Source of the DNA: a virus
Lineage: Duplodnaviria; Heunggongvirae; Uroviricota; Caudoviricetes
Length of the DNA stretch: 9,071 nucleotides
Direction: 5' to 3' (one strand)
IMG/VR virus record: IMGVR_UViG_2654587570_000008
In this document: piece by piece, positions 8,382-8,516 of the stretch
Layout: each line of letters opens with the position of its first letter
How positions within the stretch are numbered: the stretch's first letter is position 1
The notes under the pieces: generated by a model
Seen by the model: only the letters and a program-made list of their open reading frames with translations
Database searches by the model: none
What the model was told of the DNA's origin: nothing
Program-made: the position numbers and the translations under genes

Positions 8382-8516
8382 ACAAAACAGAGAAGAACAC
8401 CTGCGGTGACCGCCGCCCGGATGGATTGGGTTATGAGCCCGTCGTCCGGTGATGCTCTTCTCTGTTTTGTAAAAAGAGCGGTACCAGCCGGAAGCAAGGG
8501 TACAAACTGGTACCGC
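8382..8516. other. Cluster of long perfect inverted repeats in ORF-free GC-rich DNA (candidate structured RNA or protein-binding site)
   Basis: IR1: ACAAAACAGAGAAGA (8382-8396) / TCTTCTCTGTTTTGT (8456-8470), 15 bp perfect with a 59-nt GC-rich interior. IR2: GCGGTACCAG (8478-8487) / CTGGTACCGC (8507-8516), 10 bp perfect with a 19-nt loop. Neither is followed by a T/U tract on either strand. Confidence 0.35.

Follow-up and report, generated by a model that had tools for sequence, protein, structure and literature searches.

A candidate STnc100-family small RNA terminator and an adjoining conserved hairpin upstream of the early-left genes of a lambdoid prophage

The stretch of DNA examined here (9,071 nucleotides (nt) of the IMG/VR virus record IMGVR_UViG_2654587570_000008, called the window at its full length) is part of an Escherichia coli chromosome that carries a lambdoid prophage of the SfV/SfII/ST64B type. 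Upstream of its leftward yfdR/xis/int operon lie two perfect inverted repeats, IR1 and IR2, which had been described in an initial annotation made from the letters alone and which together span positions 8382–8516. In our best reading, this interval is the 3′ part of a minus-strand non-coding RNA module of ~340 nt. The Rho-independent terminator of a small RNA (sRNA) of the STnc100 family is probably formed by IR2 and the adjoining UCUUUUU, and IR1 is a separate RNA domain directly beyond that terminator, for which we tentatively propose a role in processing. Taken as a whole, the interpretation that we somewhat favor is that of a leader hairpin with an RNase III-type processing or a regulatory role, preceded by the terminator of an sRNA. 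The view of the initial annotation that the interval is a structured non-coding RNA on the minus strand, in the sense of the yfdR/xis/int operon, is upheld.

Terminator and STnc100-type domain

Both repeats are perfect where they had been placed (8382–8396 with 8456–8470 for IR1, and 8478–8487 with 8507–8516 for IR2), and the 59-nt interior of IR1 does fold into two small hairpins, as had been described. With arms that extend to 25 nt at 84% complementarity, IR1 contains the longest perfect inverted repeat in the window among those with loops of up to 100 nt: 15 base pairs (bp), against a mean of 9.95 bp and a maximum of 12 bp for the best repeat in each of 40 dinucleotide shuffles. The 10-bp repeat of IR2 is unremarkable on its own, with ~0.9 repeats of at least 10 bp in the shuffles and seven in the window. 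When the minus-strand transcript was folded, a check that the initial annotation had proposed, IR1 reached −45.5 kcal/mol (z = −6.9), or −51.2 kcal/mol (z = −8.5) in its extended form, and the extended form of IR2 reached −21.2 kcal/mol (z = −4.3).

The initial annotation stated that a U-tract is absent after both repeats, whichever strand is read, and that neither is a simple terminator. Both statements fail for IR2, the minus-strand stem of which can be extended to 13 bp and is directly followed by C-UUUUU-AC (Table 1); a stable G+C-rich hairpin thus stands directly before a U-tract, as in a Rho-independent terminator. The consensus terminator scan, which allows loops of up to 8 nt, missed this site only because of that limit, as the loop of IR2 is 15–19 nt long. 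In the Rfam STnc100 alignment, IR2 and UCUUUUUAC fall on the terminator hairpin and tail of the model; IR2 and UCUUUUU take up model positions 170–206. Covariation among homologues, another of the checks proposed, was found in the IR2 stem, where six of the 13 pairs have changed on both sides among 57 distinct homologues; in IR1 it is consistent with the helix and thin. The UUUUU is invariant in all 57, and in ST64B a completely different stem (GUCGGCGUC/GACGCCGAC) precedes the same CUUUUUAC tail. The terminator loop UUUGUACCCUUGCUUCC (8489–8505, minus strand) is pyrimidine-rich and conserved, which is unusual for a terminator loop, and it could be a pairing or protein-binding site.

The U-tract also decides the fate of a motif that had been read as boxA. 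The sequence CGCTCTTTTTAC is, as described, the reverse complement of 8469–8480, and the accompanying caution that a 7-nt match is expected about once by chance is borne out, with 1.06 occurrences of CGCTCTT expected, three present, and three reached in 23 of 200 shuffles. The heptamer itself consists of the 3′ arm of IR2 and the U-tract. Its CGCUC part is CGUCC, CGACC or CGCCC in homologues (giving CGUCCUU, CGACCUU or CGCCCUU), and as this part varies with compensatory changes in the stem, a boxA of the NusB/NusE type is not conserved. No boxB, in the sense of a short hairpin with a pentaloop a few nt 3′ of boxA, was present: the next structure is the 25-bp IR1 helix, and the nearest small hairpin downstream has a 7-nt loop and lies ~29 nt away. 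What the site shares with the lambda nut sites is a CGCUCUU heptamer that precedes a hairpin when the operon is read in its sense direction; the window heptamer differs in lying inside a terminator, in not being conserved, and in not being followed by a 15-nt boxB pentaloop hairpin. An N-type antiterminator gene is not annotated in SfV, mEp460 or ST64B, where annotations were consulted and no profile search for N-like proteins was run, and the product of SfV orf33 is not arginine-rich by inspection. A lambda-type nut site, for which neither a conserved boxA (CGCUCUUA-like) nor a boxB-type hairpin after the motif was found, was rejected.

A structured small RNA was a further possibility raised in the initial annotation, and it holds for IR2 together with the sequence upstream of it, IR1 being a domain apart. 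A permissive Rfam scan, which had also been suggested, gave a full-length match to STnc100 (RF02076; 42.1 bits, E = 1.3e-6). Both the P1 helix and the invariant 3′ core that define this family are present, the latter with its CACCGGGAGGCACCCGGCACCA hairpin at 8564–8543. P1, which in the window is a 9-bp perfect inverted repeat (I5), covaries over 36 diverse family members, for example as GCAUGGU/CACCAUGC, CUACGGU/CACCGUAG and AUGCAGU/CACUGCAU. The 15-mer CCGGGAGGCACCCGG (8561–8547) was recovered from at least 120 viral contigs in 150 instances with 134 unique flanking sequences, and across these very diverse flanks the extended core YCACCGGGAGGCACCCGGCRCCA and the 5′ GUGGUGAAU are preserved. 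The arms of hairpin P4 differ in nearly every family representative while their pairing is kept. Judged by these features, the window RNA is a member of the STnc100 family, in a variant that stays below the Rfam threshold. The same subfamily includes the relatives at loci L002, L004, L010, L015, L021, L034 and L103, none of which gives a match at the gathering score; canonical copies score 52–132 bits.

A pseudoknot, which is a proposal of this analysis and not part of the Rfam model, would join the P4 loop to the strand 3′ of P2. The two are complementary in 33 diverse relatives, with a mean pairing of 6.7 nt compared with 4.5 nt in a reversed control (Wilcoxon p = 7e-7) and 34 distinct pseudoknot strands, and shuffling of the loop gave p < 0.05 in 16 of 37 sequences. 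Comparing cognate with non-cognate strands proved uninformative, as the pseudoknot sequences of family members are related, and the comparison was replaced by the loop shuffles and the reversed-strand control. In P4 the MAFFT alignment of the family (A3) is out of structural register, so individual sequences rather than alignment columns were used to test the pseudoknot. In the window (8531–8666, minus strand) and at loci L007–L126, the covarying pseudoknot and the invariant 22-nt core suggest a structured partner-binding RNA rather than a typical sRNA composed of a seed and a terminator.

Known copies of STnc100 are expressed. E. coli O157:H7 EDL933 transcribes 11 copies, and for one of these there is Northern blot confirmation (PMC5331693). 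The copy downstream of stx2B is overlapped by EcOnc27, an sRNA bound by Hfq (PMC12711010), and PasD has been reported as a relative (bioRxiv 10.64898/2026.05.13.724894). Expression as a discrete, Hfq-associated sRNA is known for canonical copies only (PMC5331693, PMC12711010), and PasB of the Pas sRNA preprint could not be linked to the window locus. With STnc100, EcOnc27 and PasD, the window RNA shares the P1 helix GUGGUG/CACCAC, the junction GAAU, the invariant hairpin, the P4 loop pseudoknot, the 3′ hairpin with its U-tract, and an origin in lambdoid prophages of enterobacteria. It differs in its score, as does its whole subfamily, in its P2 (GCGGCUCAGCGCACGCGG in place of the family consensus CCCCCUNNGCGGNGGGG), in the length of its terminator loop, and in having no clear promoter of its own, whereas in many canonical copies P1 is preceded at a few nt by a strong sigma-70 promoter and followed after 30–60 nt by a terminator, and some copies stand in tandem arrays. 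Its location differs as well: canonical copies have their place in the late region, with Q, stx and the lysis genes nearby, whereas the window copy belongs to an early-left leader, and its subfamily sits inside such leaders or 5′ untranslated regions. In the metagenomic viral contigs L029 (460–980) and L045 (1813–2333), three STnc100-type units follow one another in tandem at a period of 253 nt, and every unit has its own terminator.

The IR1 hairpin and its distribution

The 15-bp perfect repeat of IR1 is the core of a 25-bp helix that takes in the terminator U-tract through U·G and U:A pairs. Its 25 consecutive predicted pairs, which include several G·U wobbles, exceed the near-uninterrupted 20 bp or more taken as the length of an RNase III substrate. 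In the 57 homologues, 99.4% of the cells of the IR1 alignment are paired. One basal pair changes from G:C to A:U in five sequences or to C:G in two, an inner pair changes from A:U to G:C in seven, and two positions are mostly G·U, which on the plus strand would be A·C mismatches. At 76–85% identity, the ST64B-type and L177/L209-type copies still have the helix, maintained by compensatory and wobble changes. In place of the second inner hairpin, the ST64B type has GCUG-UUA-CAGC and L177 has GGUG-UGGC-CACU, so that a hairpin is kept and its sequence changed. Given its conservation, its strand-specific G·U pairs and these compensatory changes, IR1 is a conserved RNA helix of the minus strand, two and a half turns long and located in every case between the terminator and the genes that come next. 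A permissive E-value Rfam scan assigned no family to IR1. Beyond it, the small hairpin at 8369–8354 covaries, with four of its five pairs changed on both sides, and past this hairpin the homologues are mosaic.

The 147-nt module of IR1 and IR2 was found in 2495 of 5426 complete E. coli genomes (46%), in 3330 copies. RefSeq and phage records annotate it either as nothing or as a "hypothetical protein", in one case marked as frameshifted. The larger module of ~340 nt is conserved in lambdoid phages of the SfV, SfII, ST64B and mEp460 types, between the PL-proximal region and the early-left genes. The yfdP–yfdR region of CPS-53 in E. coli K-12 lacks the module, and K-12 transcriptome resources could therefore not be used. 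A covariance model of IR1 (R1) recovered only three remote relatives among 100 loci (L027, L080 and L010). In other phages, hairpins of 19–25 bp abut STnc100-like domains on either side. They stand directly 5′ of P1, sharing UUGUG with it, in L027 (10091–10192), L237–L240, L010 (3505–3603) and L057, and directly 3′ of P1, followed by a terminator, in L021, L103 and L080; in type B relatives, no gap separates the IR1-like hairpin from the GUGGUGAAUGCGG of an STnc100-like domain. Three immunity types share a common order, namely a repressor-controlled promoter, then a long structured leader free of open reading frames (ORFs), in which an STnc100-like domain comes together with a long hairpin and a terminator, and lastly the early-left genes.

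Four steps of a possible mechanism we infer from this arrangement: termination, read-through, RNase III cleavage, and action in trans with Hfq. IR2 would end most transcripts and release a discrete sRNA of ~200 nt, the body of which would be a pseudoknotted fold of P1, P2, the pseudoknot, P4 and the invariant P5 hairpin, and which, like its relatives, would probably be trans-acting with Hfq. The fraction of polymerases that read through IR2 would supply the early-left genes. IR1, lying directly 3′ of the terminator, would be a processing or stability element for a double-strand-specific nuclease of the RNase III type, and its cleavage would separate the sRNA from the downstream mRNA in read-through transcripts. 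Long leader hairpins are processed in the lambda N leader, at the T7 early sites and in metY-nusA-infB. Like them, IR1 is a leader helix of about two turns that is preceded by a regulatory or stable RNA with its terminator and followed by the first downstream gene. It differs in that its helix closes a three-way junction rather than forming a simple or internally looped hairpin, in that one arm copies a tRNA anticodon arm, and in that its cleavage is a prediction. By this analogy, an RNase III site is the most economical reading of the 25-bp helix, and we put forward the processing mechanism itself as a possibility short of an even chance.

Several observations weigh against the combination of an STnc100-family sRNA and a processed leader hairpin. 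The Rfam score of 42.1 bits is below the curated gathering score of 47, and P2 departs from the family consensus. A promoter scan of the minus strand from 8200 to 9071 found none, and the best candidate by eye, AAGACA-17-TATTTT, has eight of 12 matches. The terminator loop is unusually long and itself conserved, so that it may serve some other purpose or the terminator may work inefficiently. Covariation in IR1 is thin, with no variation at 16 of the 25 basal pairs and 95–99% identity in most homologues; the invariance of the downstream GGAGAAAC is partly imposed by the search pattern. Cleavage by RNase III is proposed by analogy, and it leaves the copy of the anticodon arm in IR1 unexplained.

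Table 1. Coordinates of features in the window; RNA elements and their pairings are predicted.
Feature	Position	Strand	Remarks
STnc100-family small RNA, divergent subfamily	8469–8683 (8683–8469)	minus	Rfam RF02076, sub-threshold
P1, 5′ strand GUUGUGGUG	8653–8661	minus	pairs with 8538–8546 (CACCACAAC); long-range helix
Pseudoknot, 5′ strand AAGGUUG	8622–8628	minus	pairs with P4 loop 8571–8577 (CAACCUU)
Hairpin P4 GUCUGGUG / CGCCAGGC	8563–8587	minus	9-nt loop is the 3′ strand of the pseudoknot
Invariant core CACCGGGAGGCACCCGG-CACCACAAC	8538–8561	minus	hairpin P5 (CCGGG-AGGCA-CCCGG, 8561–8547) and P1 3′ strand
IR2 extended, terminator hairpin of the small RNA	8477–8517	minus	13-bp stem, 8517–8505 / 8489–8477; 15-nt loop
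Terminator tail C-UUUUU-AC	8469–8476	minus	with the IR2 3′ arm makes up the "boxA-like" CGCUCUUUUUAC
IR1 element	8377–8475	minus	25-bp basal helix, 8475–8451 with 8401–8377; closes a three-way junction with two inner arms
Apical hairpin CGGGCUCAUAACCC (GGG / CUCAUAA / CCC)	8428–8441	minus	tip of IR1 inner arm
Second inner hairpin of IR1 (GCGG-CGGUCA-CCGC)	8403–8416	minus	
Small G+C-rich hairpin after GUGGAGAAAC	8354–8369	minus	resembles P1 5′ strand, junction and P2 start of an STnc100-like unit
yfdR	7721–8257	minus	
Small xis-like ORF and two small ORFs		minus	between integrase and yfdR
Integrase	5757–6929	minus	

Competing readings

The initial annotation had also named a put-like antitermination element. 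For the sub-element that it singled out, this is not supported, and no similarity to HK022 putL or putR was found (the HK022 put regions being located in the HK022 record by sequence reading); in a broader form, it is an alternative that we consider unlikely. In that form, the STnc100-like domain would stay on RNA polymerase as a protein-independent antitermination cassette and read through IR2 and the later early-left terminators, with IR1 as part of the same leader. Several immunity types (mEp460; L021 and L103; and SfV, with orf33 between) do have a PL-like promoter followed by an ORF-free leader with an STnc100-like domain, a hairpin and a terminator, no N-like ORF is annotated between promoter and terminator, and an invariant 22-nt core amid free sequence would suit binding to a conserved host machine. 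The HK022 put RNAs likewise lie downstream of PL and PR and act alone (PMC9378689), and in relatives, too, a structured RNA comes after the early promoter and ahead of a terminator, the interval being free of N-type genes. In sequence and at the level of Rfam models, however, the two share nothing beyond chance words of 7–10 nt, and put is an RNA of ~70 nt with two stems whereas the STnc100-like RNA is ~125 nt and pseudoknotted. Canonical family members are moreover stand-alone units with promoter and terminator of their own, and ~28% of them face a convergent downstream ORF by crude ORF calls. They accumulate in lysogens as terminated, Hfq-associated RNAs, which efficient self-antitermination would prevent, and next to lysis genes self-antitermination would be harmful.

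IR1 could instead be largely a relic. It would then be all that is left of a second STnc100-like unit, namely the hairpin on its 5′ flank, after recombination had removed the body of that unit, and its apparent conservation would be due to recent spread. The continuity between hairpin and GUGGUGAAUGCGG in the type B relatives speaks for this origin, as does the window itself, in which IR1 is followed by the similar GUGGAGAAAC, a P2-like hairpin and then mosaic sequence; the near-identity of most copies would fit recent spread. A mere relic would not be expected to keep its helix by compensatory and wobble changes, together with its apical motif, as the divergent ST64B-type and L177/L209-type copies do, and there is in our view only a small chance that this account is right.

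The apical motif is the subject of a further alternative. Over 14 nt, CGGGCUCAUAACCC (8441–8428) is identical to the anticodon stem-loop of initiator tRNA, tRNAfMet, with three G:C pairs and the loop CUCAUAA; the tRNA sequence was verified against annotated tRNA-Met genes at 100% identity in 5426 of 5426 genomes. In the predicted fold, the motif lies at the tip of an arm. The CAU triplet is preserved in 56 of 57 variants, the most divergent copies (L177 and L195) retain UCAUAACCCGA, and the otherwise divergent L027-type hairpin retains ACGGGACUCAUAACCCAAU (ACGGG(A)CUCAUAACCCAAU), so that the motif survives where the surrounding helices have diverged. IR1 might then be a functional mimic of the initiator-tRNA anticodon arm and serve as a decoy or sensor for the VapC/MvpT tRNases, for the 30S P site with IF3, or for MetRS. 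Enteric VapC toxins cut tRNAfMet exactly at the boundary of the anticodon stem and loop (PMC3378870). The resemblance was noticed post hoc, however, and it is imperfect among relatives: the L027-type loop has 8 nt (ACUCAUAA), the ST64B loop reads CUCAUUA, and the IR1-like hairpins of L010 and L057 lack the motif. ARAGORN found no tRNA gene or cloverleaf in the window, and literature searches on an initiator-tRNA anticodon mimic in phages and on VapC, tRNAfMet and phage found no description of such an element. Mimicry of a tRNA anticodon arm in an mRNA leader is familiar from the thrS operator, a leader hairpin that likewise reproduces the anticodon stem-loop of one specific tRNA. IR1 differs from it in its position, which in SfV-type phages is ~110 nt away from the closest start codon and not beside the ribosome-binding site, in copying the initiator tRNA, and in that its proposed binding partners are candidates. 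On balance, functional mimicry is doubtful. Its fullest version, in which the IR1 tip is a selected tRNAfMet-arm mimic in the first early-left RNA and acts as a decoy or tripwire, with VapC/MvpT of Shigella, Salmonella and E. coli as the most concrete target, we likewise regard as a long shot.

A role at the DNA level is very improbable, be it as a palindromic protein-binding or cruciform site or as a miniature transposable element whose terminal inverted repeats would be the 15-bp arms. The perfect 15-bp repeats do enclose 59 bp that are less conserved than the arms, but the G·U positions favor one RNA strand, and the left flank, which was free in the search pattern, does not differ among the 124 copies recovered from viral contigs (the pattern fixed the right flank). 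As IR1 always follows the terminator tail and has the same left flank, it is not mobile; no target-site duplications or flanking direct repeats were found, and a transposable element was rejected. That the sequence encodes a protein, as ORFs of 52–101 amino acids overlapping the region on both strands and the hypothetical proteins annotated there might imply, is scarcely credible and was rejected as well: a protein-coding homologue had been named as what would overturn the RNA reading, and mismatches to ST64B are spread evenly over the codon positions (23/25/21) with no third-position bias or periodicity, the indels relative to ST64B (6, 5, 1, 1, 20 and 1 nt) are not multiples of three throughout and break the frame, and the open frames differ among homologues.

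Genomic setting and significance

The stretch from 8258 to ~8770 contains no credible gene. In SfV, the order is a PL-like promoter, orf33 as the first gene after it, the module, orf32-orf31-orf30 (yfdP-, yfdQ- and yfdR-like), xis and int. By sequence reading, SfV PL appears to be TTGACA-16-CATAAT, overlapped by TGTACC-type palindromes that resemble the annotated cI/cro operator region. In the window, the match to uninterrupted relatives (L001 and L002) ends at 8975, and from ~8978 onward the sequence is the end of the insertion sequence IS1, recognized by its terminus. The IS1 end (8976–9071) interrupts the SfV-type orf33/PL region, so that the leader module is separated from the PL promoter normal for this phage type. 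Relative to SfV, the window has also lost orf32 and orf31 (yfdP- and yfdQ-like) through a 1.3-kb deletion with its junction at 8357–8368, and the leader consequently runs straight into yfdR, an arrangement shared with SfII, phage SKA5 and several viral contigs. Because it is cut off from PL by IS1 and the two following genes are deleted, this copy may be poorly expressed.

Other features of the window and its relatives were observed alongside. Truncated by IS1, a plus-strand ORF with a good Shine-Dalgarno sequence (8771–8980) runs in antisense orientation across the 3′ portion of SfV orf33; the ORF chosen in public annotations is the minus-strand one. Two plus-strand terminator-like sites, each a hairpin with a T-rich tail, flank the module (8354–8369 and 8715–8734), and they may stop antisense transcription or be incidental. 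The window starts inside an IS3-family insertion sequence (1–888) with a transposase ORF bearing rve and HTH_21 domains, and an ALIL frameshift pseudoknot (RF01497) at 1–72 scores 60.5 bits, above the gathering score. A second integrase, of the P4 type, is encoded on the minus strand at 3491–4687 and adjoins a copy of the 3′ end of ssrA/tmRNA (...GGGUUCAACUCCCGCCAGCUCCACCA, ~4899–4871, minus strand) and a terminator (~4838–4805), the whole region extending over 3491–4947. The arrangement points to a tandem pair of integrative elements inserted where ssrA provides the attachment site, and the sub-threshold Rfam matches to "IsrM" and "tmRNA" correspond to this ssrA 3′-end fragment. Outside the window, the early-right regions of SfV (L002, 6464–6652), mEp460 (L003, 6152–6340) and ST64B (L004, 6232–6420) contain isrK and C4 antisense RNA genes above the Rfam thresholds, a P1-type immI-like module.

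IR1 is a widespread RNA element that has so far gone unannotated. Recognizing the module as RNA corrects a missing or spurious "hypothetical protein" annotation, and it brings to light a whole STnc100-like subfamily in early-left leaders that escapes the Rfam threshold. STnc100/PasD RNAs have hitherto been treated as ordinary base-pairing sRNAs, and their core and pseudoknot suggest instead a partner-binding RNA. The order of promoter, structured RNA, terminator, hairpin and genes raises the question of how lambdoid phages that appear to lack N pass the first early-left terminator. If the anticodon-arm mimicry were true, IR1 would represent an RNA-level counter-defense or stress sensor in prophages of nearly half of sequenced E. 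coli.

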